64,000 nt of DNA from Mobula hypostoma (taxonomy: Eukaryota): positions 16,244,001 to 16,308,000 of the forward strand of contig NC_086124.1 of the NCBI RefSeq assembly GCF_963921235.1. The letters run 5' to 3'. Positions 10,828 to 56,246 of this stretch are shown here, piece after piece. The notes below the pieces were generated by a model, which ran no database searches, was not told the origin of the DNA, and worked only from the letters and a program-made list of their open reading frames with translations. How positions within the stretch are numbered: the first letter of the stretch is position 1; the number at the start of each line of letters is the position of its first letter. The position numbers were made by a program, and so were the translations under genes.

Positions 10828-11705
10828 ATAAGCTGCATGCTGGATATTTAACCATCACATTTGCTGAATCCTGCAGCAAGTTCAAAAGTAACTGTTGGTA
10901 TTGAACTCTGCAATTATTGTTGCTGTTCATCACACTCTGGTCACTGGGCATGGGAGGAATTTCTTGTGATGATGTTCACCTTTAATAGGACTAGAGTTTA
11001 ATATTATGGATCTGTGACTAATAAATCAGTTCTATTTTAAACTCTGTATCAGGTGCCTAGTGAACCTATAACACACCCAGTGTACAGTAGGGAGCCAACT
11101 GAGCCTAGCTGGTCTTTGTCAGAATTTCTGTTCCACAAGAGTTCTCTTAAACCCATCCCTGCCATTCACCTCTGGCTCTCCTGTGGAGATGGGTTCCAAA
11201 CAGTCACCACTCTGTGGGTGAAGAATTTTCCCTTGAATTTCCTGCATGACTTTCCGCAGACTGGAGAAGACAAGTTGACTGCAGTTATTTATGTCTGTCA
11301 TGTTCTTCATCCCGGGTCCTATGTCCTGCTCATTTCAACATTATGGGTCATTTTTACTACTTCTGAAGAGCTGAACAGGGAAACACAGCAGGGGGGTGTG
11401 CAAGTGAATGTCGGAGTAGCAACATTTGGAAGCTGATAGACAGAGAAAAAAAAATTGGTTGACTTTGACTTTTGACGTACGATGCTTGTTGACTTTGAGT
11501 GTATTGCTTGTGGGAGCTTGCTGTATTAAATTTCCTACTCAGTTCTGATAAAAATATTAACTTGATTGGTGGCATTTGACAGAGGGGAAGCAATGCTTGT
11601 AAGCACTTTCAATTGCACTGTTCTTACCCAGATACAGTATCTCTGAATTTCAGAATGTACTATCACTGCAAATCGAGCATGGAGGTGCTGAGAGCCTGTT
11701 GGATC

Positions 11706-12058
11706 TGACTGTTTAATTGTCATTTTCTTTGCAGTTGAACAATTAATTATCTGCTTATATTTTAAGTAGACTTTATATACATTACAGTTTAATATGCCTC
11801 CAGTGGCTGTACAAAGTAGACCTCGGGAAGTTTCTTTGTACTTTATTAAGTGAGTGTTTCCTCATTGGTTAATTCTTACTGCAGTAATGACTAAGTATTT
11901 TCTAATCTGATTATTTTATCTATAGATTTGAATGGGATTTTTCTTATCTTTGGGTATAGAAGTAGCTGTTTTATGCTGGATGCCATCTTTAATGTCTGCC
12001 TGCTTCAAGTAGTAGACCCTTGTCACCATTCACTTCCTGTTCAATCAACTCTTGTATG
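11706..12058 (+). mobile_element. Partial retroviral-like LTR downstream of gene B (truncated by CR1)
   Basis: Homologous to 26677-27100 and 54347-54770, which are followed by a PBS. TATA-like gggtatagaag at ~11952. The 5' boundary is approximate. Confidence 0.6.
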
Positions 12059-12059
12059 T

Positions 12060-13480
12060 TGATGAATCTAATTAAACTGGCAAGGGACAAGGAAGAGGAA
12101 TTTATGCAGTGGCTAGGGAATGTTCTTTACAGGAGTATGTTACAGAACCCACCCAGAAAAGGCTATTTCATACGTGGTTCTGTGTAATGAGGTCAGAATA
12201 CTGAGAAAGATCATGGTGAAGGATCCCCAAGGAAGAAGTGATCACAACATCGGAGCATTCCAGACACAGTTTGAGGACAAACACCTGCGTCCAAGCCGAC
12301 GTCCTCAACCAAAATAAGGGCAGTTACGTGGGTGTGATGGTGGAGTTGTCTGGGGTAGATGGGGCAAATAGGCTCAGGGACAAATCAGTGGGTGAGCAGT
12401 GGCAGGTGTTTAAACAGCTGATTCATAAGGCTCAGCAGACACTGACCCAAATAGACACAGGGATCCAGCTGAAAGATGAACCATCTGTGGTCAGCCAAAA
12501 TCGTCAAGGTAAATATAGAATCAAAAAACATATAAAGAGGCAAGGGTTGTTATTGGGCCAGAGTACAGAGAATATTTCAGGAAGTAGTGAAAAGAGACAA
12601 AAAATAAAACAAGAAACAGCCAGATATGTTAACTCAATAATTTAATCAATGTTCATGGTAGGGACACAGCAAACATTCCTTAGGTATCTGATGGGTGACA
12701 TTTCAACACCGTTCAATAATCAGTAACAATCACCATTACGAGGGAGAGTCTAAAGCAAACATCACTAGGTCCAAATGACCTGCATCCTAGGGTTTGGAGA
12801 GAAAGAGGAGGCATAAACTCACTCTGTTCCAGGAAGGTCCCAGTGGATGGAAAACTTCTAATGTGAATCAATTGAGAAGGGTTGCAAGACAAAAAGCAAA
12901 TAACTGTAGTCATGTTAACTTCTCATATGTTGGCAACATGCTAGCATCTGTGATTTATGAAGAAATAACAAGTCATTTAGAAAAGTTTTAATGTCTCAAC
13001 CGAGTCAACGGTTCAAATAATCGAGCTGACCAAGGTTACCATCTGAGCCTGTCCTATTTCCCTGCATTTGGTTCATATTTCTCAAAACCTCTTCTAACAT
13101 TATTAATACACCTCCCTCAACCACTTCCACTGACAGATCATTCCATACATTGACCGCCCTCTGTAGAAAAGTTGCCCTTCAGGTTCCTATGAAATCTCTC
13201 TTTTCATCTTAAACCAATGCCCTCCAATTCTTGATTCCCCAACCGCGGCAAAAAAAACTGTTTCCTAACCCTATCTAGGCCCCTCATAATTGTATACACC
13301 TCTATAATTCACCACACATTCTCTGACACTCACAGGAAAACTGTCCAAACCTGCTGATACTCTCCATAAATGAGTCATTCGAGACCCAGCAGCATCCTCA
13401 TAAATTTCCAACTTCTTTCCAGCTTAATGTCCTCCAGCAGCATGAGAAAAAAACTAAACACCATATTCTAAATAACAAAC
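12060..13480. mobile_element. Degraded CR1 fragments (+ 12060-13020; - 13040-13480)
   Basis: DPQGRSDHN, WKTSNV and a CR1 3'-end-like sequence; many disablements. Confidence 0.7.
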
Positions 13481-13654
13481 GAGAAAATCTGCAGATGCTG
13501 GAAATCCAAGCAACACACACAAAATGCTGCAGGAACTTGGCAGGCCAGTCCTGCAAGAAGGGTTTCGGCCCAAAACATCGACTGTACTCTTTTCTGTAGA
13601 TGCTGCCTGGCCTGCTGAGTTCCTCAGCATTTTGTGTGTTTTACCATATTTGAA

Positions 13655-14876
13655 ATACTATATACCACCTGGGAAACAAGGACACTTATGTCAGAATGCT
13701 GTTTCTGGATTTCAGTTCAGTATTCAACACTATTGTTCCACAGAGCTTGGTGAACAAACTCTTATTCTTCAGTCTAAATATACCACTGTGCATCTGGGTG
13801 TTGGACTTCCTAACCACAGACCTCAGATCATCAGAACACACAACTGCTCCTCCCTCACCATCATCCTCAACACAAATGCCCCTTCACCCCCAGGGAGGTA
13901 TGGTGAGCCCGTTGCTCTACGGTCTCCTCACAGAAGACTATTCACGTGTTTGGCCATGAAATCACATTGTCATGATTGCCAATGACATCACCAACTACGA
14001 TGAGACACTCTACAGGGAGGAGGTGAAAGAGCCAAAGGCCTGCTTCTAGGCAAATAGCTTCTTATAAATGTCAATAAGACAATGGAGATAGTCATCGAAT
14101 TCAGAACTCACACCACTCACCCCTCTGTTTACATTGGCAGCAGAACAGCGGAAACAGTGAGCAGTTTCAAACTCCTGGATGTGCACATCTTGCCCAAACT
14201 CTCATGTCCAAGAACACATCCTACACAGTCAGAAAAGCTTACCAAAACCTCTACCTTCTGAGGAGGTGGAAGAGAGCTGGACTATGCACATCAGTGCTCA
14301 CAACTTTCTACAGAGGTGTATTAGAGAGCATCCTAACCTCCTGCATAATGCATGAACTGCACTGGGGCAGACAGGAAGGCTCTACAATGGGGATTCAAAC
14401 CTGACCAACACATCACCAGTACCAGTCTACCCAGCATCAAGAACATGTATACAGAAAGGTGCTGGAAAAAGGCCAGCAATATCATGAAAGATCCCACTCA
14501 CCCTGCTCATGGACTGTTTGTCTCACTCCCATCATGGAGGAGGCCATGTAGCAACCACATTTAATCAGCAGTCTCAGAAACCGTTACTTTCCTGAAGCAG
14601 TCAGTCTGATCAACACATCCACCATCAACCCACCCTGGCTCACCCCCACCACTACTACTTTATCATTTCCTGTCACTCACCTCATGTAAAGACAATCCTA
14701 TGCCTAGGGTCACTTTATAGACATACAATCAGTGTATTATAAACTACTTGTGTATTTATATTTTCTATTTTTTTTTATTATTGCATCTTTTGCTGCATGG
14801 GATCCGGAGTAACAATGACTTTGTTTTCCCTTACACTTGTGTACTGGAAATGACATTAAACAAGCTTGAATCTTGA
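13655..14876 (+). mobile_element. Rex1/Babar-like LINE 3' fragment
   Basis: [52 protein letters not shown]; cttgaat tail. Confidence 0.8.
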
Positions 14877-25327: not shown

Positions 25328-25434
25328 AGTTAAAATACAATTTATGTTAGTGAAACTAGAATTTCAGTCTTGCTAAAAACTCATTAATTCAATTAATACC
25401 TTACTAAAAACGTAACAACAACTGATTCCAATAT

Positions 25435-25600
25435 TTTCAATCTCCATGTTCTTGAATTAGGTCTGCTAATATATGATTCTCATTGATACAAAGGGTAAAT
25501 GATTTACCTGTGTCAGGGATTATTTATGCAGGTGCAGTACACAATGTTATCTTTAAAGCTTGAAATGCTTTCAGTTGTTCTTCATTAAGAACCATAGGGT
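25435..25600 (-). pseudogene. Retroviral pol remnant (RT-RNase H connection)
   Basis: Manual translation gives LNEEQLKAFQALKITLCTAPA*IIPDTGKSFTLCINE..LADLIQEHGD. Confidence 0.75.
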
Positions 25601-25964
25601 TGTCTGCGCCCTTGCTGTCCTTCAGCAGATTGTTGACTGGTTGAGCAACTGTTGATGAATCAGTCACTGGCTTGTCAATACATTAATTAGCAAGGGACTC
25701 TGATGCGAGTCTCAACTCAAAGGTTTGACTGTTTACACTCTTCTATAGATACTGCCTGACTTGCTGAGTTACTCCACCATTCTGTGTGCCGCGCAGTTGA
25801 AGTTGCTGCCTGTGCTTTCTGACATTGTCTCAATTTGTTTTTGAGCCGTGAGCAATTTAGATCGATTGAATTAAAAACACAAGAGATTCTGCAGATGCTG
25901 GAAATCCAGAGCAATTCACACCAACACAGGTACCTCCAGCATTTTGTGTGTGTGACTTTCAATT

Positions 25965-26300
25965 ACCATCTTGTTCTTTCACTTGTTGGTTAATGCAAAG
26001 ATTTACTCTTTAGGCATTTTACTGTTTCTATCGTGCTGTTTTTGTGGTTCATCGCAAGTTTTGTGTTTCTAACAATTAGTAAAAGACTTTACTCATCCCA
26101 TTACGCTTTAATTGCTCACACATTTGATCAAACTAACCAGATGCTTTTATATCTAAATCAGTAACAGACATTTCCTGAGTCTTATTCCATATATTCGCAA
26201 TATCATCTAGGAGCTGTATTTCATTAGATTTAACATTATTGGTATATTTCAATAATCTTATCAAAATTAAAAGTTTTACAACTTTAGCCATTGTTTTGAT
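25965..26300 (-). pseudogene. Second, diverged gag N-terminal remnant
   Basis: LLDDIANIWNKTQEM and KQHDRNSK parallel LLSDVQKIWNKIQKM and EQYDRDSK of the 23.5-24.7 kb remnant. Confidence 0.55.
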
Positions 26301-26656
26301 GCAATCCTAAATATATACGTACTTTTACTATGACCGCAATCTTGAATTTTTAAACAGGTTGTCCTGCAAACTGAATTTTCCCTATGCTCTGCTCACTTCC
26401 ACAAATTAATTAGCTTTTTATCTGTGCTCTACTGCCTGTATGAACAAAATTTTTTGAAGTTTGCACTTCTTTTTAACAGATGATGATTTTAAATAAATAG
26501 CAACACAACAGTCCTCAATCCTAATTTCCATCTGATGATGTAAAAGCCAGAGCTAGTTTTTTTTTCTCAGACTATTTACAACATGAAAGGAAGTTCTTAT
26601 CCCTTTTTGCAGTTGGCAAATATTCTTTCATTGTCTTGGATTATTCTGAACTCTAA

Positions 26657-27100
26657 GTGCTACTGACTACGCCAATTGGCGGATTTGATGTTTAAGTCCA
26701 AGCTACTTTTAAAAGTCAGGAACAAGGCATGAACTTGTTGCTTCACTATCATTTTATGAAAAGTTGATAGGAGTGGAACAGTGGCAGGGTTCTAGTACTT
26801 GAAGAAGAGAGAGAAACTAAAGATGGCACACCTAGCATAAAACAGCTACTTCCATGCCAGAAGAAAAAAACCCATTCAAATCTAAATACAGTAATCCATT
26901 TGGAAAGAACTGAGTCAACACTTCAGCAAAAATTAACCAATGACAAAACACTTACTCACTTAATGAATTGCAAAGAAGCCCCAGAATTATATTTTGAATA
27001 GCCACTAGAGGCATATTAAACTGTTATGAATACAATGGCTGCATAAAATACAAGGTAAATAATTGTTAAACTGTAAAGACAATAATAATTTAAAATTAAA
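26657..27100 (-). mobile_element. ERV 5' LTR and tRNA-Ser primer-binding site
   Basis: LTR-like segment ending ...ccgCA-at-TGGCGTAGTCAGTAGCAC (26674-26657). This is 14/18 to TGGCGTAGTCGGCAGGAT, the complement of a vertebrate tRNA-Ser 3' end. It precedes the gag/pol remnants. The 5' boundary is approximate. Confidence 0.7.
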
Positions 27101-28422
27101 CATTGGATCCAACAGACTCTCAGCACCTGTGCACTTGATTCACAGAGATAATACATTCTGAAGCTCACAGATTTCTGGGTACCAACAGTGCCATTGAAAG
27201 TGTTTACAAACTCTGCCAAATAGTATCATCCAGTCAATATTTTTATCAGAGCTCAGCCGGCAATCTAACACAGCAAGCTTCCACAGGCAATATACTCAAT
27301 ATCAACAGGCACTGTGTGTGTCAAGAGTCATAGTTAACCTATCTTTTTCTCTGTCAATCAGCTTCCAAAGTTGCTACTCTGTCATTCGTTGCCATACCCC
27401 CTGCTCATCATCATCTGCTCTTACCCCTACCTCCGTGCAGAGCACCAAACTCTGCCCTGTGCTACCACGTCTCTGGTTTCTGACCTTGCTCCAGTGAACA
27501 TACAACTAATGGTTCTCCATTCTGCTTTCAGATTTTCAAGGACAGTGGTTTATTGTAACAACCAAGCTCTGTGAGTCACAGCTCTTTCGAAGCAGTGAAA
27601 GTGACCATAATGTTGAAATGACCAGGGAATAAGTTGGTTAACTACCAATGTCAGTCATACTCAGGCCTGAGATTTGTGGGACAAAGAATATGTCAGTCAC
27701 CACTGTAGTCAGCTCACCTTCTTCAGTCTGCAGGAAGTCAAGCAGGAAACTTATGGGAAACCTATGAGAAACCTCTTCACCCACAGGGTGTTTGGAATGG
27801 ATCACCACAGGTGAACACAGCAAAGGATTTAAAAGGGTCGTCGTGGAACAGAAACAATAGCAGGGACCAGCTCTGCTGAGTTGATTCCCTACTGTAAACT
27901 GGTTGTGCTGCAGATTCACTCAATACCTGAGACAGAGTTTCAAATAGAACTGATTTATTTGTCATAGATCCAGAATATTAAACTCCAGTCCTATTAAACA
28001 TGAACATCAGCAGAAAAAAACTCCTTCCATGCCCAGTGACAGGGTGCAGAACTGGGTTTGATGAACAGCAGCAACAATTGCAAAGTTCAACACGAACAAC
28101 GACTTTTGAACTTGCCTTGGAATTCAGCAAGTTAAATAGTTAAATATCCAGCATGCAGCTTATTTAAACTGTTTCCCCAGTGTGAATTTGGGAGTGTGTC
28201 ACAATATTGAATGAGTGAGTGAGTCCCTTCCCACAGAGCAAGTTAATGCTCTCGCCATCCACCCCAATGTGAACTCAATGATGCACCTTCAGCTGAGATG
28301 ACCGAATGAATTCCTTCCCAATCTGAGCAGGTGAATGGTCTCTCCCCAGTGTGAACTAACTGGTGTTGCAGTAGGGCAGATGACTGAGTGAATCCCTTTC
28401 CAAAGACTGAGCAGATGAATGG

Positions 28423-30609
28423 CTACCCTTCACTGTGAACTGACTGGTGTGCCTGTAGCTGAGATGACCAAGTGAATCCCTTCCCACAGTCTGAGCAGGT
28501 GAATGGTTTCTTCCCAGTGTGAACTAACTGGTGTTGCAGTAGGGCAGATGACCGGGTGAATCCCTTCCCACAGACTGAGCAGGTGAATGGCCTCTCTCCA
28601 GTGTGATCTCGCTGATGTACCTTCAGAGAAGATGACTGAGCAAATCCCTTCCCACAGTCCGAGCAGCTGAATGGCATCTCCCCAGTGTGAACTAACTGGT
28701 GTGCCAGTAACTGAGATGAGCGAGTGAATCCCTTCCCACAGACTGAGCAGGTGAATGGTTTCTTCCCAGAGTGAACTAACTGGTGTTGCTGTAGGCCAGA
28801 TGACCGAGTGAATCCCTTCCCACAGACTGAGCAAGTGAATGGCCTCTCTCCAGTGTGAACTCGTTGATGTACCTTCAGTTCAGATGACCGAATGAATCTC
28901 TTCCCGCAGTCTGAGCAAATGAATGGTCTCTCCCCAGTGTGAACTGACTGGTGTCTCTGTAGTTGAGAGAACTGAGCAAATCCCTTCCCACACACAGAAC
29001 AGGTGAATGGCCTCTCTCCAGTGTGAACTCGCTGGTGTGCCAGGAGGTCAGATGTCTGACTGAATCCCTTCCCACAGTCTGAGCAGGTGAATGGTTTCCC
29101 CTTAGTGTGAACTGACCGGTGTGTTATAAGCTGAGATGACCGAGTGAATCCCTTCCCACAGTCTGAGCAAGTGAATGGCCTTTCCCCAGTGTGAGCTCGC
29201 TGATGTATCTTTAGTTCAGATGCCCAAGAAAATCCCTTCCCACAGTCCGAGCAGGTGAATGGCCACTTCTTGGTGTGAACTGATTGGTGTCTCTGCAGGT
29301 CAGATGACCGAGTGAATCCCTTCCCACAGTCTGAGCAAGTGAACGGCCTCTCCCCACTGTGAACTAACTGGTGTATCAGCAGGTGAGATGACCGAGTGAA
29401 CCCCTTCCCACAATCGAAGCAGGTGAATGGTTTCTTCCCAGTGTGAACTGACTGATGTGCCAGTAGGTCAGGTGAGCGAGTGAATCCCTTCCCACAGTCT
29501 GAGCAGGTGAATGGTTTCTTCTCAGAGTGAACCAACTGGTGTTGCTGTAGGCCAGATGACCGAGTGAATCCCTTCCCACAGACTGAGCAAGTAAATGGCC
29601 TCTCTCCAGTGTGAACTCGTTGATGTACCTTCAGTTCAGATGACCGAACAAATGTCTTCCCGCAGTCTGAGCAAATGAATGGTCTCTCCCCAGTGTGAAC
29701 TGACAGGTGTCTCTGTAGTTGAGAGAACTGAGCAAATCCTTTCCCACACACAGAACAGGTAAATGGCCTCTCTCCTGTGTGAACTCGCTGGTGTGCCAGG
29801 AGGTCAGATGTCTGACTGAATCCCTTCCCACAGTCTGAGCAGGTGAATGGTTTCCCCTTAGTGTGAACTGACTGGTGTGTCATAAGCTGGGATGACCGAG
29901 TGAATCCCTTCCCACAGTCTGAGCAGGTGAATGGCCTCTCCCCAGTGTGAGTTCGCTGGTGTATCTTCAGTTCAGATGCCCAAGAAAACCCCTTCCCACA
30001 GTCCGAGCAGGTGAATGGCCATTTCTTGGTGTGAACTGACTGGTGTCTCTGCAGGTCAGATGACCGAGTGAATCCTTTCCCACAGTCTGAGCAAGTGAAT
30101 GGCCTCTCCCCACTGTGAACTAACTGGTGTGTCAGCAGGTGAGATGACCGAGTGAACCCCTTCCCACAATCGAAGCAGGTGAATGGTTTCTTCCCAGTGT
30201 GAACTGATTGGTGTGCCAGTAGGTCAGATGATCGAGTGAATCCCTTCCCACAGTCTGAGCAGGTGAATGGCCTCTCCCCAGTGTGAACTCGCTGATGTAG
30301 CTTCAGTTCAGATGGCCAAGTGAATCCCTTCCCACAGTCTGAGCAAATCAGCGGCCTCTCTCCAGTGTGAACCGACTGGTGTCTCTGTAGGTTGCTTAAC
30401 CGAGTGAACCTATTCCCACACACAGAACAGGTGAATGGCCTCTCTGCCATGTGAACTCGCTTGTGTGACTGCAGGTGGGTTGACTGGGTGAATCCCTTTC
30501 CACATTCAGAGCAGGTCAGTGGTCTCTCCCCAGTGTGAACGCGTTGATGTACCTTCAGATGAGACGACTGAGTGAATTCCTTCCCACAGTCTGAACAGGT
30601 ATATGACAT
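28423..30609 (-). CDS. C2H2 poly-zinc-finger protein (gene C), 26 fingers
   Basis: 728-aa ORF of tandem 28-aa fingers. Candidate acceptor at 31475-31476. AATAAA at 27959-27954. Decayed fingers on both sides (28164-28422 and 30610-31100). Confidence 0.9.
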   Translation of the reverse strand: MSYTCSDCGKEFTQSSHLKVHQRVHTGERPLTCSECGKGFTQSTHLQSHKRVHMAERPFTCSVCGNRFTRLSNLQRHQSVHTGERPLICSDCGKGFTWPSELKLHQRVHTGERPFTCSDCGKGFTRSSDLLAHQSVHTGKKPFTCFDCGKGFTRSSHLLTHQLVHSGERPFTCSDCGKGFTRSSDLQRHQSVHTKKWPFTCSDCGKGFSWASELKIHQRTHTGERPFTCSDCGKGFTRSSQLMTHQSVHTKGKPFTCSDCGKGFSQTSDLLAHQRVHTGERPFTCSVCGKGFAQFSQLQRHLSVHTGERPFICSDCGKTFVRSSELKVHQRVHTGERPFTCSVCGKGFTRSSGLQQHQLVHSEKKPFTCSDCGKGFTRSPDLLAHQSVHTGKKPFTCFDCGKGFTRSSHLLIHQLVHSGERPFTCSDCGKGFTRSSDLQRHQSVHTKKWPFTCSDCGKGFSWASELKIHQRAHTGERPFTCSDCGKGFTRSSQLITHRSVHTKGKPFTCSDCGKGFSQTSDLLAHQRVHTGERPFTCSVCGKGFAQFSQLQRHQSVHTGERPFICSDCGKRFIRSSELKVHQRVHTGERPFTCSVCGKGFTRSSGLQQHQLVHSGKKPFTCSVCGKGFTRSSQLLAHQLVHTGEMPFSCSDCGKGFAQSSSLKVHQRDHTGERPFTCSVCGKGFTRSSALLQHQLVHTGKKPFTCSDCGKGFTWSSQLQAHQSVHSEG

Positions 30610-32598
30610 TTCCTCGGTGTGAACTGACTAGTGTGCCAATTGCTGAGATGACTGAGTGAATCTGGTCCCACAGTCTGAGCAGGTGAACAGCCTCTCCCCT
30701 GTGTGAATTCGCTGATGTAGCTTCAGTTGAGATGACTGAGTGAATCCCTTCCCACAGACTGAGCAGATGAAAGATCTCTCTGCAGAGTGAACTGACTGGT
30801 GTATCAGTTATCGAGATGATTGAGTAAATCTCTTCTCACAGTTTGAGCACATGAATGGCCTGTCCCCAGTGTAAATTTGTTGCTATCTCTTTAGGTGGGA
30901 TGTGAGTGAATCCCTTTCCACATTCAGAGCTGATGTACAGCCACTCCTGTGTGTGAACTCGCTTGTGTGTCAGAAGATCTGATGATTAATTCAATCTCTT
31001 CCCACACATGTTACAGTTGTGCAGTCTCTCTCCCTCGTGAACTCACTGGTCTTTCTGTGGTGGGCTGAGTAAGTGAATCTCTTCCCAGATACGTAATACC
31101 GTCCTCTTTGTGAGAATTTTTGATAAATATTTAACCTGGATGACAATTTGAAATGTTTCCTGCAGCCAGAAATGTAGTGAATCCCTCACAGTCATTACAG
31201 TTGATGAACTGATCTCTCGTGAATAAAAGCTGATGTGTTCTCAGCACCCTGGTTCCAGTGGTTTTTACTGAGTTTCAACAGAAAACTTCATTTCAGATAC
31301 AAAGCATGTTTCCATTTGGGATGAGATACTCCTTTTCTTCTCCATGAATCAACAATAGATGTATTGGTGTTACAAAGGAAATGTCTGATCACTCCTTAAA
31401 TATCTGGATAAAGACAGCAAAACTGATGTGATGTGTTTGAGATTCCAGTACACGAATTACTTGCAGTTTCTAACCTGTAAAAAGATTTACAAAAGACATC
31501 AATGGACAAAAGACAACATTTCAGATGAAATAATTTTAGTCTCTACTGTGAACTCTGACATCACACTGTCACAGCGAAGTGCAACACAAGTTGTAGGAAC
31601 AACTCATCTTCTAACTGGTTGCAGCTCAGGCATCCAGACTGATAATCAAATTCTCTGTGTTCCTGTCTGCATCAGAATAGTCCATTTCTGCCTCTTTAAT
31701 CTGTGACTTGGCTCAGTTTGCCTCTCTCTATTAGTATAATTTCAAGTTCTGCTCATGCCCCACAGCGCTATAAAGAGCACATGATATTACACAGCTGATC
31801 CTGGAGACTTTCAAATTACCCTGAGCCTCCCCCCACCCAGTGAATGACAGTGGTGAACTCATCAATGGCCTCGTTGATGGCAATGCCAATGAATATGAAG
31901 GGGAGGGCAGCAGGATTTCTCATTGGAATGTGGCACTTTGTGACGTGAAAGCTACAGGTCACTTGTTACCCAGGACAAAGGTGTTTGATAACATTATGTA
32001 CCGAGAGAATGGTACAAAACATGTCCAAAGCACGGGGAGATAGAACAAAGGTGATTTTCTCAAGAACTAAAGACGATTGATTTTGTTCTTTTTTCATGTA
32101 GCACTAACACAGACATTTTCATTAACTGGAAGATAGACTATTCAATCGAGATTAACTCCGAACTATATTTTTGTTCCAAGTTCCTGATTTTGGATTTAGA
32201 CAGCTGGGACCTGACGGTGTCTGAGAGACCCATCCGATCTCAATTCCCCTGCCTATACTTCCAAAAATGCCTTACGGACTGCAGAGGACAGAGGTGCAAG
32301 TGTCACCCATGGTCGCTAACATACCCAGAATTCCCCACAAATGAGAGACCCGTCTATCCACCATGGTCGGTCTCAGCGACACACATGCGCCAGACATGGG
32401 CGTCAGTACCTTCGCTCATCAGCAGAAAACTCCCCAGAGCCCGGATACAGATCGTGGGACTGAGAGGGGAAAATGACCGTTATTGTCCCGGGATGCGGGG
32501 CCACAGCATGTCCGGAGTTCGCGGCAATTATCGTAGGGTTATGATGCGGCCGGCTGTGCCGAATGAACCTACACCCAGGGCCCACTCCAACCTGCTCC

Positions 32599-35500: not shown

Positions 35501-37871
35501 CGTATAGTTCTTCTCACCACTGCCTGTGCCTTCTTATATTGAATCAAATGCTGCATATTATGGGTTCTTTTAACTAGCCTGGATGCTCTATTTCTGTTTT
35601 TTTTTTACAGCCTGACAACATTCCTCTGTCCACCATGGTACCAGTTTCCTATTCATCCTATTTTTATTCCTGGGTATAGATCCTTCTGCTGCCATAATTG
35701 CTGAAGTCACCTGACTGTTTAATTCATCTATATTTCCAGAAATGTCAATCTTTATCAATGCTTCTTCACTCAACTTCTGGAACTTACCCCAATCTGCTTT
35801 TCCAAACACCCACTTTGGGATTCCGCCACCTGGTCTTATTTCAACTCTTCCACCCACTGAACATAAAACTGGGTAGTGATCACTGCCTACTGCTGAAGCA
35901 GTCCAAACTCCCCAGTTGATAATGCCAGCCAAAGTATTAGACACTAACGTAATATCTAACACTGACTCAGTTCCTGTTGTTTTGTCTATCCTTGTGCCTC
36001 TACCATCATTCATACACACCAAATCCCTTTCTTCCATCAAATCTTCAATTACCTTTCCATTTGGATCTGTAATCGGATCCCCCTCCCAACCCCATATTGT
36101 GCTGTAAGCATTGAAATCTGCACACCACACTACTTTATGTCTGTTTTGTCCTTGTATCTTTAATAGGCTGTCCAAATCCAACCTTTTACATGGATTGTAG
36201 TAGTTAATTATAACCACTCCCTCCCCGCTCTCCCACACTTCCACCACTATGTATTCCTGATCATTTCCTTTTTCCAGTACCCTATATGGTATACCTTGCT
36301 TGATTAACATAGCACAACCCCCTCCTCCTCCTAGATTTCTATCTTTCCTTATCATTGTATACCCATATACCACAAAGTCTAAAGTTGGTTTCAACCAAGT
36401 TTCCTGAATACACACTATGTCCAGTTTTACAACCATTTCTTTAATAAAGTGCTTGAATTCCAGGCTATTGGCCAGTAAGCTCCTTGCATTCCATTGCCAA
36501 AGAATCACCATAATTAGTATTAACCAACCCATGACACTTCCTGGCTTGACTGATTAGCGAGGTTCTCCCTCACTTCCTCCCATGTCAGTCCTACTAACCC
36601 TAAATGGTTTACTGCTGCTTTGACCACCAGCTGAATTTTGTCACTTTTTGACTTTACCTCAGCCGTACTATTAATCACTCCTGCAATGAATGTTACTAGA
36701 GCCTTTTTGCCTACATAAATCCTGTCATTTGTTCTTTGTTGCATCTCTCGTATCCCTATTGCTCCCTGTTCATTAGGAGCATTATTCTATTCTCTTAACA
36801 TTCTTACAGCTTCTGCATAAGTGATCTTTCTTTTCACTCTTATTTCTTGAATTTTATTCTCTCGTCTCGTAACCTCACACCCACTATATGCAACATTATG
36901 AGCTCCTCCACAATTGCAGCATTTTGGTTGAACTCCTGTTCCGCACTTTCCATATTCATGATCACCCCCACATCTAGCACATCTCCTCTGCCTTTTACAG
37001 TTTTTAAGTATATGTCCAAACCTTTGACAATTATAGCATCTCAGTGGCTTTGGCACATACACCCTTACTGGGTAGCTCATGAAACCCAGGAACACCTTCC
37101 TTGGCACTCTGTCTTCTTCAAATTCAATCAATACTGATTCACTTTCCTTTTTCACTCCCTCCTTTGTTGTTTTCAGTCTTTGAACATTCATTACTTTTCC
37201 TCCTTTGATATTCCTCTTTAACTCCTCCATATTTATATTCATTGGTACCCCCGTGATCACTCCTTTACGACCACTGTTTCGTGCTCCTACCCTCCCTGTG
37301 TATTCCACCTTGCATTTTCCTATCTCTTTTAGCTTGAGTGCTTTCTCAAGTTGCTCCTCATTCGCACATCTTACCAATAGGTTGCCATCATTAAGGACTT
37401 TTGCAAATACTATTTCCCCTATCTTATTTGCCAGAGTTGTTGTTAGCACAAACGGGTTAATTTTCTTCATATGTCCCTGAGCCTTCTCATTAAACCTAAT
37501 TATGACAACACCTTCTCTCTGAACTTGTTCATCTTCCTCACTTTCAGAGCTCTCTCCACTGTCATTTCTTATTCTTTTATTCCTTTTGTCTGTTTTCATC
37601 CATCCGTCCCCTCACTAGCTCCTCATTCCCTTTATTTATCCCTTCACAATAATCCATTTCTCCCCAGCTGACTACCTCTGATGCCGAATCCCTATCCCAC
37701 TCCTTCTCCACTCTTTCCCTCAACCATACCCCACCCCCCACATTGTCCGCCATTACCGGACCCGCGCGACCCCCTCCCAACAATTCCCGCTCCTTCCCCG
37801 CTCTCTTTCCCTCAACAAGTTCCAAACCACATTCACGCATCAAGAGCAACCACCAGCCACCCACTTTACCT
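32599..37871 (-). mobile_element. Near-full-length Nimb (I-clade) LINE: gag-like ORF1, then APE, RT, RNase H and a C-terminal Zn motif; frameshifted
   Basis: ORF1 has three CCHC knuckles (36787-37599). APE: WQWNARSL, CIQETWL, DFNA, SDH. RT: FFDIEKAYD, QGSVISP, LFADD. RNase H: CSDS, WVPAHVG. 3' stem ggcggt..accgcc and a purine tail. TSD ctcc(a/g)acctgctcc at 32585-32598 / 37872-37885. Confidence 0.93.
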
Positions 37872-37995
37872 CTCCGACCTGCTCCCCATTTTCCGGATCC
37901 TTTTGTCAACAGAGCGCATGCGCAATTTTGAAAAAAAAAACCGACCGCCCTTTACGCCTGCGCATTAGATCGGTGGTGAATGTTGAAACGTGAAG
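37872..37995 (-). promoter_or_regulatory. Promoter of ZNF gene C (NRF1-type sites), displaced by the Nimb insertion
   Basis: GCGCATGCGC at 37914-37923 and cgcctgcgca at ~37955. Aligns to 6931-7065. Confidence 0.65.
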
Positions 37996-40210: not shown

Positions 40211-42043
40211 AAGAAGCATGGCAACATGATCATTAAACTCCCCCCACCGCACAAAAGGCAACAAGAACATCACCCCCCCATACAAAACGTAACAAAAACA
40301 TCAACTTCTAACTACCACTCCCTTGTACAAAGAACATTGACGCCACCCCACCCCCCTCCAACCTCCCTCCCGCACAAAAATCAATGGGAAAGAACAACAC
40401 ACAACATGAAAACCATAAAACTGAAAAGGTCCGTAGTCCAAATCCATAATGCAGAAACTCGGTAACATCATCGAAAGTGGGAGACACCGCTCGATTGTGG
40501 AGGCCTGTCCCCTGGGCATGGTGAAAAGCCATACAGGCTCCTTCTCCGGCAGCGGAGGGATCCCATCAGAGATCAAAAGCTGGGTGGTTGGCGCTGAACC
40601 TTCGCTCGCTTTCCACACTTGCTTCAATGTTGTAATCTTCCTTGACAATGGAAGCTTTAATCGGTGAAATGGAGTCAAACATTGGCTTGTGCTGTCTTAT
40701 AGTTTCAACGTCTCCAGGCCTGTACTCTCTTCCCAGACAGCAAAACAGTCGATCCCCAAACTGTAAATCGCAGGCTCTAACAGATCTAAAATCACAAATG
40801 TAAAAGAGTGAAATAAATAGTTTCATGGTCTATCCGGAAGATGTTAACCAAGGGAGCATTGTATGCAAGTGCCATCATGATGCAGGAAGGCATATCTGGG
40901 TCGGCAAGGCATCATTAAAAGTGTTTGCAAGCACTGGTTCCACGCCACATGCTTCTGCGTTTCTCAGCAGCTACTTTAACACAGATAGCTCTGATAAACA
41001 ATATCAACAGGCATTCCAGATTTGAAATGCTGATATCCAATCCACTTACAACTGGTATTATTACAGATGCTGGAAATATAAAGCAGCACATACAAAGTGC
41101 TAGGGAAATGCAGCAGCTCATTTAAGCAAAGGAATAAACAGTCTACACATATGGTGATAGTTCTCAGCCCAAAACATCGACCGTTTATGCCTCTCCATAG
41201 ATGCTGCCTGACCCACTGAGTTCCTCCATCATTCTGCAGAATAAACCATTTTTCAGTCAATCTGTTTCCAAATAGTCCTGATCTTTCATTTGTAGCCACA
41301 TCCTCTAGTTTGATTCCTTCCTCCTCTTTCCTAAAGCTCGAGCTTCCAACTCTTTCTGGAGCCCAAAAGCCCTGAATCGTCTGGCTCCTCTTTGGTTTGC
41401 GAACCTGCTCCAGTGAAGATTTGCTATCATTCTGCTCTCATACTTTTGAGAAGTGTTGTGAATTTGAATAACCCAGCTGTGTGAGGTACAACCTTTGAAA
41501 TCAGTGAAAATGACCCAAAATGTGGGAAAGAGCAGGGAAGAAGTTTGGGGAGGAACCAACCATGACATTCTTCCTTGGCCCAGAGCCCTGAGGAACGAGG
41601 CATATTTGGGACTAATTCACAGTGAGCTCATCATCTTGGTCCGTTTGCAGGAAGTCATCGAGGAAATTCAAAGAAACCTCTTCACCCACAGTTGTAACCC
41701 GTCATCACAAGGAGAGCAAGGGGTGAACGGCAGGGGTGGGTTTAAAAGCACTGATATTGAAGAAAACACAAGCAGGGTCCAGCTGGACTGAGCGGCCTCT
41801 TTAATATACCCTGGATGCAAGCACCTGAGACACATGATTTGAAAAAGAATTCACTTACTTGCATAGATCCATATCATTAATCACCAGGTTAATTTCAGGC
41901 TAACATCAGCAGAGCAGACTCTTCAAAGCTCAGTCCTGGGTGTGATGAACAGCTGCAAGAACCGGAGAATCTAATGTTAACAATTAGTCGGGAACTTGCA
42001 ACTGGATGCTGCTACTATGATGATTAAAATTTTAACATAAAGC

Positions 42044-42430
42044 TTATTTGAACTTCCTCCCTGATGTGAAGTTGCTGGTGTTACAACAGTTGGGATGATT
42101 GAGTAAATTTCTTTGCACACTCAGGACAGAAGTGTGGCCTCTACTTACTATGAACTGCTTGGAGCCACACATGCTGGAATAATTGAATGAAACCCTTCCC
42201 ACACTCAGAACAGGTGTACAGCAGCTCCCCTGTGTGAACTCTGGTATTTCTGTGGATTGAAGTCTTGGATGAATTCCTTCCCACACTCGGAGCAGGTGAT
42301 TGGCCTCTCCCCGGTGCGAATTTGCTGGTGTGTCTGCAGGTGCAATGGCCTAGCGAGTCCCTTCCAAAATGAGAACCAATGAATGACATCTCACTGCTAT
42401 CAACTCTATGGCCATTCAGCAAGTCAAATC
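42044..42430 (-). pseudogene. Degenerate C2H2 ZNF remnant (unit D)
   Basis: RVHTGELLYTCSECGKGF with frameshifts. Shares the 3' lesions of unit A. Conserved 3' UTR/spacer at 40880-42040. Confidence 0.85.
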
Positions 42431-48534: not shown

Positions 48535-50610
48535 TGTAATAGTTACCGCCCCCGTCTGTATGTGACTTGAGTGGGTTCCCTCCCCGGGTTTTGTACTTGT
48601 CACAGTAAAGATGTCAGTTGAGATAAACGTGTTTTTGCATGGACCGAATGCTCACCACCTTGGTGTTTGGATTAGGATTGGAAATTAACGGCGAGATTGA
48701 AGAACTACAACGCTGGATGGAGCGCCCTAAAACCTGGGGAATAAGTGGAGGGACCCAGCAGTATGCCTCCCCCGCACACCCGAGCCGAGCTCCCGAAGAC
48801 AGGACGCTGACCTGGAGGGAGAACCTGGGAACCAAGAATCGTGCCTTTCCAGGGCGAGTGTATTCAGTCTCCAACAGCACAGGGGACAGAGTGGAGAGCA
48901 TCATCCACCTCTCTCGTGGCCCAAACCGGGGAACATAAGGTTGACCGCAGCCATGGAAGGACGGGCAACAAGGCAGGCACCACCGACACAGCTGGAGCAA
49001 GAGGAAGACTAACGGGCCTCAGTAATTCACACCGAAGCTTCCCAGATACAATGGTGCCAGCCGCCTGGAGCTTTACCTGGCGCAAGTCAAACTTACCTTT
49101 CGGCACAACGGGTGGAGCACCACAGAGACGGCGGTGCGCCTTGACCTGACACTGGAGCCCAAGCTTGTGTCGCCGAGGCAGAGGAAGAAACTGACGAGGA
49201 GGAGCCCACGAGACTGGTCCGACCAGCGCTGCGCCTGGCTTTTCCCGCCGCGTGCCACGGTGCGATCTTTGCTACCGGCGTGGCGAGGCCAGGCCACTTG
49301 GGCCGGGACTGTCCCGCACCGGCGTAGCCATCGGGAAACACCAAGGGGAGGGCACCACCCGAGATCTCGAATCTCTCCGTTGTCGCCTCTGCGGGTGGGC
49401 CGCTTGGATAAAGAGCATGACTTGGACTGCGTAGAGGGCATCAGCTGCCGTGCGTTGGTGGACATGGGGTCACCCATCACCATCATCCGTCCTAGTGTCC
49501 TCCCCAATACAGTCCAGCCATCCCCGCCTGGTTGGACAACGACGGCGGTCCAGCTGACTGGTGCCTGTGAGGCGATGAGAGGGAAGAGACGGCTGCGCAT
49601 CGCAGTGGGTAAAAAGATAGTGGAGCACGAGATGGCCTTGACCTGCTGGCCCTTGTGGGTGTGCCAGAGCAACACCCACCTCGACGCTGAAGCCGTGGCT
49701 CTCCGGCGGGGCGGCTCCAGGAAGCGGACCAGGCGGGCGCTGCATCGATCACCACGGTCTTACAGTGGCCCACCGCAGTGCAGCGCACCCCAGAGTTCAA
49801 AGCAACACAGCGGAACCAGGGGCAAGCGGTGGTGGCGGCGCTTCAGATGGCAGCCATCGGCGAGGTAGACCTCTCCAGTATTGACCAGCAGTGACCAATT
49901 CCATGCTGTCCCATGTGAGGGGGGTGGCTGTGCGTGGGACAGCTTCCGGAGTGGGCAGAGGTCTCCGCCATGGATTCAGGGACTCTGAGTGGGGCAGGCT
50001 GGATATATGTTACAGGTTGCTGTTCCAGCCATAGCAGTTTTCCGACAACGGCAGACATCTCTTGCAGTGGGTGGTCCCCCGACAGCTCCACGCCATGGTG
50101 CTGCGGTCGAGGTACAGGCTGGTGGGAGCCGGCCATTTCGGGGTCGCAAAGACGTTGGGCAAGCTGCGCCAATGCAGCAATACCTGGTGGAGGCCATTAT
50201 GGAGCTGCTGCCCCACCCGGAAGAAGGCGCTATTCCCCAAGCTTGGAAGCCGTTGGAAACGACCGGGAGAGGTACTCGACCTAATCTCTGATGTGATATA
50301 CCGGGTGTGGTTGCCTGAGAGACGAAAGGCAGTCGTGCTACATGGGGAGCGGCTGGCACCGTATCGGCTCTCGGCTACCACCGACCCAGTGAGGCTGAAG
50401 GAAGGAAGTGACACTGCGGTGTCCTGCCTCTCGCCTCATCAAATAATGCCTCCAGTCAGTTCGGAGGGTGGGGAGGGGCTACAGACACCCACAACGCCTC
50501 AGATAGCGGCGTTGACCACCACCAGGACTTTTGGATTTTGTTGTTGACTCTGAGGTTACTGAGGACAGCTGACCCCTCAGGTGAGGGGCAATGTGGCGCT
50601 TTGGAGGGCG
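48535..50610 (+). mobile_element. Internally deleted, decayed Gypsy-type LTR retrotransposon (gag knuckle, protease and integrase remnants)
   Basis: Decayed CCHC near 49265-49315. Protease-like ALVDMGSPITII. Integrase VVPRQLH..GHFGVAKT and KL..RW..P.EVLD.ISDVIYRV..VVLH..RLAPY. PBS-like tggtg at 48661. Polypurine tract then TGTGGCG at ~50592. Confidence 0.8.
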
Positions 50611-52672: not shown

Positions 52673-53084
52673 CGAGACTCCATAGTATTACATTAGTCTT
52701 CTTGTACAGCACCACCATACAGACTCCAGAAGGTAGAGTGTTCCTATGAAACGGTTCGTAAGCCGGAATGTCGTAAAGTGAAGAAGCAATTACCATTTAT
52801 TTATATGGGAAAAATTTGTGCGCGTTTGCAGACCCAGAAAAATAACCTACCAAAATCATACCAAATAACACATAAAACCTAAAATAAAAATAACAGTAAC
52901 ATATAGTAAAAGCAGGAATGATATGATGAATACACAGCCTGTATAAAGTAGAAATACTTTTCTACAATCATTGCAGCACTGTTCTCCATAGCGAAAATCT
53001 CACGGAAGCGCTCTCGGCAGAAACACTCTCTCCAGCTTCACTCTGGGAAACATAACAGTCTGCCTATTTAGCACCAGCATCCAA

Positions 53085-53390
53085 ATTCCAGAGATTATAG
53101 CAGACAGTCTCCCAGTACAGCGCCACCATACAGACTCCATAGTATTCCCTCAGTCTTCTTGTACAGCACCATCATACAGACTCCACAGAATTACATCAAA
53201 CCGTCTCTATACAACGCCAGTATATAAACTCCAGAGAACTACATCAGTCTCCCTATACAGCACAACCATGCGACCTCCAGAGAATTATATCAAACGGTTT
53301 CTGAAGACAGTGATGGCACCCGAACTCCGGAGAATTACAGCCAACAACGGACGGTCCTCTGAGACAGCTATCACATCTGAACTCCGGGCG
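53085..53390. repeat. Degenerate ~45-bp minisatellite (also 52676-52730)
   Basis: Recurrent unit cagcaccaccatacagactccagagaattacatcagtctccctata. Confidence 0.7.
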
Positions 53391-54130
53391 ACTGGCGAGT
53401 GGCTAATGTACCTCTGCTTAAGAAAGGAACAGGGGAACTTCCTGGGAACTGCAAGCCGCTGAGTCTCAGTTGTAGGGAAACTGCTGGAGAAAATTCTTAG
53501 AGATAGGGTATATAAGCACTTGGCACAACTAGGGTGAGCCAGCATGGATTTGTGCATAGCAGATCGTGCCTTACCAACTTGATTGGTTTTTTTGACAAGA
53601 CGACGAGAGATTGATGAAGGTAGGGCAGTGATTGTTGTCTGCATGGATTTTAGTACAGCATTTGACAAAGTGCCTTATGGGAGGCTAATACAGAAGATGC
53701 ATGAATTCTGTGGCAAATTAGCTGTTTGAATTCAGTACTGGCTGGCAAGAAGAAAACAAAGGGTAGTGGTTGAAGGGACTTATTTAAGCTACAGGTCCGT
53801 AATTAATGGAGTTCTGCTGGGATCTGTGCTGTTTGTGGCGTATATAGCTGACAAATGAAAATATAGCTGGGTGGGTTGGTAAATTTGTGGATGACACCAA
53901 GACTGATGCAGTTCTGGATAGAGTAGAAAACTGGCAAAAAATACAATACTTTATACTTTATTGTTGCCAAACAATTGATACTAGAACGTACAATCATCAC
54001 AGCGATATTTGATTCCGCACTTCCCACTCCCTGGATTACAAATTGATAGTAAGTATAAAATTTAGATTAATTGCAGATATGGGCTGAGAAATGGCATATG
54101 GAGTTTAACCCAGATAAATGTGAGATGTTG
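53390..54130 (+). mobile_element. CR1 RT fragment
   Basis: WRVANVPL.., QHGFV..RSCLTNL, DFSTAFDKVP and KFVDDTK on manual reading. Confidence 0.8.
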
Positions 54131-54326
54131 TGATAGTAGATATGCGTGAAATGAAAGAGATGTGGTTGAGGCTGAGTACCAGCAGGATCTGTGGAAGACT
54201 AAACAGTTAATGTTTTGGGCTAAGACCCTTCTTTTTGAAGTTGAACCTGTGCTCTCGACCAGGATCTTGAAATTTTGTTTAGGCACCGAATATTCTGTCT
54301 TTGTCTTGGATTATTCCAAGCTCTAG

Positions 54327-54770
54327 ATCCTGCTGACTATTGCAATTGATGGATTTTGTAAGTTTAAATCTAAGATTCTTTTAGAAGTCAGGAATGAGGC
54401 ATAAAACAAGTTGCTTCACGATTGTTTTATTAAAAGATGATAGAACAGGAACAGATCAGTGACAGGGGCCTATGACGTGAAGAAGCAAGAGAAACTAAAG
54501 ATGGCACCTTGTATAACACAGCTACTTTCATACACAAATAAAAATTTCCACTCAAATCTATGACAACAATAATCTAATAAGAAAGTACTTAGTCAATATT
54601 GCAGTACAAATTAACCAATGAGGAAATACTTACTTATTAAATGAAGTGCAAATAAGTCCCAGAATTGTAATTTGTACAGGCATATTAAACTATTATGTAT
54701 ACAAAGGCTACTTAAAATACAAGCAGATAACTAATGTAAAACTGCAAAGAAAATGACAATTAAACAGTCA
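54327..54770 (-). mobile_element. ERV LTR and decayed tRNA-Ser PBS downstream of gene E
   Basis: ...ccatCA-at-TGCAATAGTCAGCAGGAT (54344-54327; 14/18 to the Ser PBS). AATAAA inside the LTR at ~54427-54432. Paralogous to 26657-27100. Confidence 0.7.
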
Positions 54771-56246
54771 GATCCAACAGACTCAGCACATGCACACTCA
54801 ATTCACAGTGATAGTACATTCTAAAACTCAGATTTCTGGGTAAGAATAACGTCTTGAAAGTACTTACAAGCATCGCCTCCTCTATGCCAAATGTCAGCAA
54901 TCAAGTCGATATTTTTATGAGAACTCATTAGTCAGTTTAACATAGCAAGCTCCCACAAGCAATATACTCAATGTCAACATAGTGTATCAACAGTTAAAGT
55001 CAACCTAATGTTTTTCCTCTGTCAATTAGCTTCCAAGTATTGCTACCCTGCCATTTGTTGCCACACCCCTGCTCTGTTTCCCTGTTCCTCATCACGTGTT
55101 CTTAACCCTACCACGGTCCAGAGCCCCAAACTCCATTTTCTGCTGACCTGTCTCTGGTTTCTGACCATGTTCCAGTGAACTATCGGACCCCATTCTACTT
55201 TCAGACTTTAGAGGGCAGTGTGTATTCTAACAACCCAGCTGTGTGAAAAAGCCCTTTAGAAGCAGTGAAAGTGGCCTATATCGTTGAAATGAACAGGGAA
55301 AAAGGACATTATCTACCAATGTCATTCCTCCTTCCCCAGATATTCAAAGGATGAAGAACAAGCCAGACATGACTGCAGCCAATTCGTCTCCTTCAATCTG
55401 CAGAAAGTCATGCAGGAATTTCAAGGGAAACCTCTTCACCCACAGAGTGGTGACTGTTTGGAACCCATCTCCATAGGGAGAGCCAGAGGTGAATGGCAGG
55501 GATGGATGTAAAGGACTGTTACGGAACAGAAACTCTGGCAGGGATCAGCTGGGCTCAGTTGACTCCCTACTGTACACTGGGTGTATTGTGGGTTCACTAA
55601 GTACCTGAGACAGAGTTTAAAATAGAACTGATTTATTCGTCACAGACCCAGCATAGTAAACTCCAGTCATAGTAGTGAACATCGGCAGAAGGAACTCCTC
55701 CCAGGCTCAGTGACCAGGGTGTAGAACTGGGTATGATGAGCAGCAGCAATAATTGCAGAGTTTAACACCAACAGTCACTTTTGAACTTGCCCCTGGATTC
55801 AGCAATCTCAGTGGTTAAATATCCAACATGCAGCCCATTTAAACTTTTTCCCCAGTGTGAACTGAATAGTGTGTCACAATGTGAGATGACCGAGTGAATC
55901 ACTTTCCACACTCAGAACTGGTGAATGGTCTCTCCCCAGTGTGAACTCGCTGATGTGTCAGTAGGCTGAAATGGCTGAGTGAATCCCTTCCCACAGTCTG
56001 ACAGATAAACAGTTTCTCCCCAGTGTGAGCTGACTGGTGTGCCAGTAGATTAGTTGATCCAGTGGCGCCCTTCCCACACTCTGAGCAGGTGAAATGCCTC
56101 TCTCCAGTGTCAACTTGCCGGTGTCTCTGGAGGTTGCATGATTGTGTAAACCCCTCCCATACAGAGAACAGGTGAGTGGCCTCTCTCCCAGTGTGAACTC
56201 ACTGGTGTTTCTGCAGGCTACATGACTGAGTGAACCCTTCTCACAG

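Follow-up and report, generated by a model that had tools for sequence, protein, structure and literature searches.

The window, that is the whole 64,000-nucleotide stretch of DNA analysed, contains five zinc-finger (ZNF) genes or gene remnants, A to E, three of which are accompanied by endogenous retroviral (ERV) sequence (Table 1). The genes lie head to tail, the 3' flank of each running into the promoter of the next. The stop-free frame of gene B (9886-10827) encodes nine fingers, or eight when counted from the first Met at 10063; the 5' end is frameshifted in genes B and E, and in E the 3' end as well. The intact promoter of B carries motifs that we take to be ZNF143-like and NRF1-like.

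Table 1. Features of the ZNF genes and associated ERV sequences in the window.
Feature	Positions	Strand	Details
A: decayed ZNF remnant and 3' flank	5491..6900	+	unbroken into promoter B, the ancestral head-to-tail order
Promoter B and first-exon donor	6920..7061	+	intact, CpG-rich; TACCCAG box 6920; GCGCATGCGC 7007-7016; donor ~7057
ZNF gene B, last exon	9589..11025	+	acceptor 9588; KRAB not found; poly(A) signal at 11020
B: 3' flank, ending as CpG-depleted promoter relic	11373..11696	+	TACCCAG 11625
B: ERV LTR, 3' end deleted	11697..12053	+	likely once a solo LTR
B: old CR1-like LINE piece	12052..14363	+	same LINE follows surviving 3'/solo LTRs elsewhere
C: decayed proviral internal sequence	25430..26656	-	RT-connection remnant 25700-25430
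C: PBS	26657..26674	-	14/18 to tRNA-Ser(AGA)
C: 5' LTR	26677..27114	-	start 27114
C: promoter relic	27115..27405	-	TACCCAG 27181
ZNF gene C ORF	28423..30627	-	26 fingers; poly(A) signal 27959
C: likely promoter core	37914..37966	-	~5 kb LINE (~32640-37870) separates core from rest of exon 1
D: ZNF remnant (A-type, decayed) with flank	40893..42392	-	LTR-free; belongs to the D-C unit, which has a duplicate at C80:16.46-16.49 Mb
E: PBS	54327..54344	-	14/18 to tRNA-Ser(AGA)
E: 5' LTR	54347..54779	-	provirus homology stops ~40 bp past PBS
E: promoter relic	54780..55090	-	TACCCAG 54842
ZNF gene E	55845..57440	-	13 fingers in stop-free frame 57440-56247; tail frameshifted as far as ~55845; poly(A) signal at 55637

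An LTR in the same orientation as the gene begins 0.68, 0.85 and 0.86 kb downstream of the poly(A) signals of B, C and E, respectively, in agreement with the original observation of a co-oriented block at about 0.7-0.9 kb. The LTRs of C and E end in CA, followed by AT and an 18-mer primer binding site (PBS), also as described earlier; the LTR of B has neither a 3' end nor a PBS. The previously noted 17/18 identity to the tRNA-Ser PBS is recovered when the matching base is picked from either C or E, the reference being complementary to the 3' end, plus CCA, of the tRNA-Ser(AGA) encoded in this genome. The claim that every ORF-bearing ZNF gene carries the LTR holds within the window (3/3) and fails genome-wide, where paralogs without the LTR outnumber carriers.

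The sequence that immediately precedes the LTR aligns colinearly with the stretch that leads from the flank of A into promoter B. It is CpG-depleted, as had been noted, with 0.9 CpG per 68 bp compared with 7.6 per 76 bp in intact promoters (28 relic rows, three of them mis-anchored, versus eight intact promoters). In the lineage of B, C and E, the CpGs and a few bases have gone from the downstream promoter, both in copies with the LTR (filled) and in those without it (empty). Since empty-site paralogs share this decay, it predates the viral insertion and belongs to the gene lineage as a whole. The idea of a provirus inserted into a ZNF promoter is thereby refined: the LTR does lie inside a promoter copy, and that promoter was already decayed before insertion.

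ZNF-linked LTR copies were detected at at least 21 loci on six contigs, 20 of them with an identical 5' junction: the junction was the same at all 18 ZNF-type loci first compared and at two more, and the 21st locus is deleted across it. The anticipated sharing of one integration junction by ZNF-adjacent copies is thus borne out to the base, small deletions allowed. Among 40 relic loci, 26 were empty, with the site continuing into the remainder of the promoter, 11 were filled and three were unreadable; empty units, which have no LTR, have spread no less widely. Internal pieces retained by different copies are colinear and extend from past the PBS, across pol, into env-like sequence. The D-C unit has a colinear duplicate of about 19 kb that includes the LTR; together with the shared junction and the grouping of the LTRs, this upholds the proposed amplification of a ZNF plus LTR unit. 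Capture of the ZNF gene inside a provirus was considered and rejected: the gene-adjacent LTR is followed by the PBS, host promoter lies on both sides of the junction at empty sites, and 12 units searched 10-20 kb upstream showed no LTR. Because the same remnant occupies the same spot in at least 20 gene copies, the most likely origin is one insertion duplicated together with the gene.

The LTR (TG…CA, ~440 bp) belongs to a family with a tRNA-Ser PBS, 4-bp target-site duplications (TSDs) and MLV-like pol pieces. The genome search suggested for it returned paired LTRs with PBS, a PPT-like tract and pol pieces. Two-LTR elements were located at C59:38.8, C5:214.4 and C80:33.71, and solo LTRs read TGTTGG…CCAACA. 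The C59 LTR pair (K2P 0.40) was rejected as a single provirus; the arrangement is nested, with the TSD on the outer pair. Among dispersed elements, the TSD was an exact 4 bp in two of the four readable cases and had two mismatches in the other two, and six were unreadable; at the junctions of the ZNF-linked provirus itself, a search for a TSD found none. An exact search of the genome for the LTR end plus PBS gave no match, the pattern being too strict at this divergence. The PBS matched at 14-16/18 positions in 14 of 20 scored ZNF-linked loci and at 11/18 in two, and was absent from four solo or deleted copies, so that every one is decayed or deleted. Of 25 PBS matches examined, two were host tRNA-Ser(AGA) genes, and the 23 non-tRNA matches comprised about six flank types sharing the Ser PBS.

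Pfam matches to RT_RNaseH_2 (5e-7), RNase_H (6e-6) and, below the cut-off, rve (1e-5) were obtained in three of eight ERV fragments. All nine PDB matches were RNase H or RT-RNase H p80 chains, one of them named XMRV, and the RNase H piece matched MLV/XMRV RT-RNase H at E values of 6e-11 to 5e-9. The element also retains pieces of integrase and of the RT connection, and no RT core was recognised among the copies examined. No Pfam env family was found in the ERV fragments; an env-like stretch matched retroviral TM in the PDB only weakly (E 0.45-0.58), ranking below spurious matches, and a candidate immunosuppressive-domain-like motif was spotted by eye. The element is described here as class I-like.

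In the LTR tree, a branch (support 80/84; 0 of 500 shuffles) separated all 20 ZNF-linked rows from 18 dispersed rows. ZNF-linked LTRs had a median K2P of 0.25 and their host flanks one of 0.265, while the two LTRs at C80:33.71 differed by 0.26. As LTR and flank diverge equally, the LTR appears to be free of extra constraint, and the burst to have come soon after insertion. The flank tree, which omits C22:103.60 (161 bases) and three short rows, is star-like with end branches of about 0.12. In the maximum-likelihood (ML) tree of flanks, filled loci were not grouped (nine changes) and were intermixed with empty ones; the AU test, which omits four loci with an interrupted or deleted junction, did not reject a single clade (p 0.17).

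One oddity concerns the 3' side of the provirus. There are six loci with a visible end of a 3' or solo LTR (C80:33.71, C80:16.17, C45:86.70, C22:103.51, C22:103.58 and C80:33.75), and at all six the same CR1-like LINE adjoins the LTR terminus, at it or a few bases off, with no matching TSD. Two LTR-free copies of this LINE extend ~250 bp further upstream, and antisense pol pieces of the same ERV family lie upstream of two units. Searches for a TSD and promoter remainder after any 3' LTR found no LTR at 12 pattern matches or at 30 remainder loci. Searches for reciprocal junctions, of modest power at this divergence, gave 12 matches versus seven in the control and two versus one, none with an LTR. 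It had been asked whether duplicon breakpoints fall within the provirus; seven units are homologous past it into the same LINE, which places those duplication breakpoints outside the provirus, and the duplicated unit often reaches more than 2 kb beyond it.

Gene C and its paralog at C80:16.48 Mb differ by dN 0.015 and dS 0.109 (dN/dS ~0.14); dN/dS values for the deep paralog pairs B-C, B-E and C-E were discarded, as the pairing of fingers is arbitrary. Long finger ORFs are kept at 14 of 26 empty loci. ORFs with at least six fingers occur at 19 of 21 filled and 15 of 29 non-filled loci (Fisher p 0.005), a comparison among related loci in which the empty ones were scanned less far upstream. KRAB was not among the best 25 families listed for each of three ORFs, and 72 upstream stop-free segments, each at least 32 aa long and taken from outside the most upstream exon of C, yielded neither KRAB nor any other effector domain. 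Finger fingerprints vary widely across filled genes. A crude finger-code screen against the PBS, too low in power to bear on binding either way, gave p<0.05 for none of 19 filled and two of 15 non-filled ORFs. Four contig sets examined for RNA were dominated by paralogs and repeats and carry no information on expression.

Taken as a whole, one integration followed by duplication is well supported. We consider it probable that the at least 20 KRAB-less ZNF copies sharing the junction descend from an insertion of a single class I-like provirus, which then travelled as a passenger of gene duplications; most likely, the ERV rode along and marks the time at which KRAB-less ZNFs duplicated in a burst. 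Starting from head-to-tail genes whose 3' flanks led into the next promoter, and after CpG loss from the downstream promoter in the B/C/E lineage, one tRNA-Ser-primed provirus would have integrated into the dead promoter of one member. A rapid burst would then have spread gene, whole provirus and 3' flank to at least 21 loci on six contigs, empty sisters spreading too. Each copy would afterwards have degenerated on its own through internal deletion, TE insertion or, at least three times, reduction to a solo LTR, many ZNF ORFs meanwhile probably staying under purifying selection. Counted against the passenger reading are the scatter of filled loci in the flank tree, an LTR clade support no higher than 80/84, the lack of a TSD or promoter remainder after 3' LTRs, and the higher ORF retention at filled loci.

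Since no TSD or remainder was found after the 3' LTRs, a pure passenger model requires one extra early event, and the abutment of LTR and LINE hints at one early ERV-linked rearrangement. A rival reading is a provirus that acted as a recombination substrate: exchange with another member of its ERV family, residing in an old LINE, may have freed the ZNF unit from its downstream neighbour and helped its dispersal. The uniform LTR-LINE junction, the longer LTR-free LINE copies and the antisense pol pieces would fit such an exchange, and the mechanism is proposed in the mouse model (PMC12575710). Nevertheless, neither reciprocal junction was recovered, a 5'-truncated LINE insertion or a deletion would yield the same junction, later duplications took the LINE along and so have their breakpoints outside the provirus, and LTR-free units dispersed at least as widely; we regard this scenario as rather unlikely. 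Repeated independent insertion at one site, or gene conversion spreading the LTR among existing paralogs, would explain the intermixing of filled and empty loci. The base-identical junction, the single LTR group, the shared internal and 3' flank structure and an AU test that does not reject one clade all argue against it and leave it a very small probability, though gene conversion may have acted at single loci.

A functional link seems distinctly improbable. Under it, the LTR would supply the gene with a poly(A) site, an enhancer or a heterochromatin seed, or the ZNFs would bind the LTR or Ser PBS in the manner of ZFP809. The greater ORF retention at filled loci is compatible with this, as are a sense poly(A)-like signal inside the LTR of E (54431), a Ser PBS common enough to be a worthwhile target, and the KRAB-independent repression of TEs by zebrafish FiNZ-ZNFs, as reported in PMC10547256. 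Against it stand an LTR diverging at the flank rate, a PBS degraded or deleted in every copy, ORFs kept in 14 empty-site genes, upstream segments in which no effector domain was found and the disparate finger fingerprints. A broader combination, in which a KRAB-independent arm-in-arm system of cartilaginous fish arose when the provirus recombined with a family copy, the ZNF plus provirus cassette spread across chromosomes and cassette genes were preferentially kept through LTR regulation or binding of a tRNA-Ser PBS common to several ERV families, is improbable as well.

For the passenger reading, the closest known case in the available portions of the literature is the mouse, where young KZFP clusters follow an 'arm-in-arm' model whereby ERVs co-duplicate with genes (PMC12575710; PMC13709654). 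In both systems, ERV copies are gained by segmental duplication with tandem ZNF genes and not by new integration. Unlike the mouse clusters as described there, the present units have no KRAB found, belong to a cartilaginous-fish-like host, likely a ray, and are known from sequence alone; they also trace to one insertion with filled and empty paralogs, and are old (K2P ~0.25) and spread over six contigs instead of one young cluster. ZFP809, ZNF506 and ZNF417 are PBS-targeting KZFPs, KRAB proteins for which binding has been shown according to the excerpts consulted (PMC8931336; PMC10602909). The resemblance consists of tandem C2H2 genes beside a tRNA-primed ERV, whereas the adjacency to a PBS seen in our sequence is not what defines those proteins. 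Zebrafish FiNZ-ZNFs likewise form a large, lineage-specific, clustered and KRAB-independent family in a fish; in the genes here Pfam detected no N-terminal domain, and a co-duplicated provirus is not described for FiNZ-ZNFs in the part of the source available (PMC10547256). A literature search, with subscription journals mostly outside its coverage and supplements not included, found no paper on the ZNF-linked provirus.

The locus would thus provide a clean, base-resolved example of ERVs and ZNFs co-duplicating in a non-mammal and in the absence of KRAB, suggesting that ZNF cluster architecture gives rise to the pattern, with no need for KRAB or targeting. With both filled and empty sister genes surviving, the insertion may serve as an internal clock for the ZNF family burst, and the two sets (~21 versus at least 26 genes) form a natural control group for asking whether a neighbouring ERV alters what becomes of a ZNF gene or how it is expressed. 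The ERV itself resembles class I (gamma/epsilon-like) elements such as the elephant shark CmiERV lineages II/III in its MLV/XMRV-like RNase H, integrase and RT-connection pieces, 4-bp TSD and tRNA PBS; by the values in the accessible text (PMC4422223), its copies are far more decayed, with LTR pairs diverging by 0.24-0.26 compared with 0.024-0.033 in CmiERVs.

Three long C2H2 arrays, B on the plus strand and C and E on the minus strand, lie in the window together with the decayed ZNF remnants A and D. Pfam placed the ORFs of B, C and E in C2H2 families, and KRAB was not found among the matches listed; 72 stop-free segments upstream yielded no effector domain in Pfam, and further fingers in one segment. 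The repeats of this genome suggest a cartilaginous fish, probably a ray, as host. Families lost in cartilaginous fish are described as KRAB-enriched in an excerpt of PMC8455134. The 3' flanks of B, C, D and E are colinear with the 1.4 kb between the last finger of A and the promoter of B, and this colinearity runs to the very base at which the LTR starts; the ancestral gene order is therefore head to tail, with each flank running into the following promoter.

Downstream of B, C and E, a CpG-depleted relic of the family promoter adjoins an LTR-like block (74–77% in mutual alignment), and the coordinates and orientation of the blocks, the CA-AT-PBS ends of those of C and E and the relic itself are all as originally described. 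With the E block as sole query, a search of the 3.48-Gb assembly turned up 1270 candidates at first look, and 40 of them were scored. Dispersed copies define an LTR of ~435–460 bp ending in TGTTGG…CCAACA, with exact 4-bp target-site duplications in two of four readable elements. In two-LTR elements the 3' LTR is preceded by a purine tract, and pieces of RT-connection, RNase H and integrase are present (three of eight fragments matching), the RNase H piece having PDB matches of MLV/XMRV type. The block is thus an ERV LTR, as proposed, since paired LTRs, PBS and pol pieces occur elsewhere in the genome, and the ERV is called class I-like; env was seen only as a putative motif. The predicted tRNA-Ser PBS matches this genome's own tRNA-Ser(AGA) genes; 25 exact matches examined comprised 23 PBS-like sites and two tRNA genes. 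This PBS is common to about six different LTR flank types. At C59:38.84-38.85 Mb, one provirus is apparently nested within another of the same family, the outer LTR pair being sisters in the LTR tree with a common 4-bp duplication. Several copies, including one in the window, leave only about 1.0–1.4 kb between the PBS and the RT-connection remnant, not enough room for gag, protease and RT; the family may thus have been internally deleted and non-autonomous.

Positions of features within the window
Feature	Position	Strand	Content
Promoter of B	6920-7061		
PBS to RT-connection remnant	26656-25700		
Internal tandem duplication in gene C	28174-31087		9 fingers, period 756 bp
LINE, ~5 kb	about 32640-37870	−	CCHC-knuckle ORF1 and endonuclease, RT, RNase H pieces, by eye
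D-C unit	43296-24525		D, promoter, C, LTR, internal remnant
Gypsy-like remnant	49000-50550	+	gag, protease, integrase by eye from ORFs; GC-rich, CpG-rich

The ZNF-linked LTR copies most likely trace to one insertion. The common integration junction that had been anticipated was recovered: among 30 loci, the LTR occupies the identical relic position in 18 of 18 ZNF-type loci, and C12:120.66 and C22:103.60 add two more cases; at C22:103.58 a deletion spans the LTR/relic junction. At least 21 such loci, on contigs C80, C66, C45, C22, C12 and C2, bear out amplification of the gene with its LTR. In the LTR tree, one branch (80/84) sets the 18 dispersed rows apart from the ZNF-linked ones, which number 20 and comprise 19 loci and, in addition, one 3' LTR; C12:120.66 and C22:103.60 were left out because insertions split the LTR at each of them. 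In the star-like flank tree the LTR-bearing (filled) loci do not come together, but a single clade of them is not rejected by the flank data (p-AU 0.172). A copy colinear with the D-C unit lies at C80:16.46-16.49 Mb (82–88%), a younger duplication that gives a direct view of gene and LTR duplicating together. The feature is genuine, with a well-resolved history.

A search with the relic downstream of E returned 137 candidates, and 40 places were scored: 26 are empty, running past the junction into the remainder of the decayed promoter without an LTR (two of them via small deletions), 11 carry the LTR and three are interrupted ahead of the junction. Filled and empty relics share CpG loss and a ~5-bp deletion relative to eight intact promoters; the promoter copy had therefore died ahead of ERV arrival, and no gene need have been lost through the insertion. 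The original reading of a provirus in a ZNF promoter is refined accordingly. Among ZNF-linked LTRs the median K2P over 171 pairs is 0.252, compared with 0.288 among dispersed LTRs and 0.26 between the two LTRs of C80:33.71 (292 sites); host-flank medians are 0.265 (filled–filled), 0.272 (empty–empty) and 0.277 (filled–empty). The LTRs drift as the neutral flank does, and the insertion and most duplications, filled and empty, are thus about equally old. The PBS is decayed or absent in all ZNF-linked copies.

Filled loci differ in which colinear parts of the internal region they keep, which implies duplication of the entire provirus and erosion afterwards. Solo-type loci occupy at least three positions in the LTR tree, next to PBS-bearing copies. 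Six loci still have the end of a 3' or solo LTR, and in each it is the same old CR1-like LINE that follows; B and C80:15.93 reach this LINE through deletions. At one of the six, C80:33.75, no ZNF was found within 20 kb upstream. The LINE consequently belongs to the duplicated unit, and the breakpoints of those duplications lie past the provirus. This LINE is not the promoter remainder. No target-site duplication was found at the LTR/LINE junctions of the ZNF-linked provirus, none of the 30 remainder loci examined (40 scored) has an LTR ahead of the remainder, and genome searches found neither reciprocal junction. The original 3' junction was probably replaced by an early rearrangement. A junction at the LTR terminus suggests recombination with a second provirus sitting in the CR1-like LINE, but truncated insertion of the LINE, or a deletion, would explain it as well. 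In two units on different contigs, C45:86.70 and C22:102.96, antisense pol sequence from this ERV family lies ~8–12 kb upstream of the A-type flank and may represent a second shared insertion.

Stop-free arrays of at least six fingers are present at 19 of the 21 filled loci and at 15 of the 29 non-filled ones; this difference (Fisher p 0.005) is a lead only, because the loci are related and the upstream spans read were uneven (7 kb at empty loci, up to 10 kb at some filled ones). Fourteen of the 15 are empty sites, so the claim that every ORF-bearing ZNF gene carries the LTR describes the window alone. Gene C is constrained: compared over 16 paired fingers with the recent paralog at C80:16.48 Mb, it has dN 0.015, dS 0.109 and nearly identical contact residues; dN/dS is 0.29–0.39 in three C12 pairs. 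That paralog has neither the tandem duplication of gene C nor the LINE that separates the C promoter from the remainder of the first exon.

In mouse KZFP clusters, ERVs multiply by segmental duplication, according to excerpts of PMC12575710 and the review PMC13709654. Here, too, ERV copies multiply through duplication with ZNF genes, but these, unlike the mouse genes, showed no KRAB among the Pfam matches listed. The ZNF-linked ERV most likely acts like the passenger half of the mouse model, here among KRAB-less genes outside mammals, a case of which a literature search found no published description.

When intact, the promoter of B and its paralogs keep a TACCCAG box, a GCGCATGCGC element and the first donor across contigs. 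These elements presumably resemble ZNF143 and NRF1 sites, on which a literature search found no publication for these promoters. This ZNF family has units on no fewer than 18 contigs. Eight of the sites are less than 1 Mb from the end of their contig (C2:0.03, C22:0.44, C36:0.2, C41:0.48, C12:198.9 of 199.0, C63:70.5 of 70.7, C66:63.9 of 64.1 and C58:76.6 of 77.5 Mb), which may hint at subtelomeric exchange as a route of dispersal.
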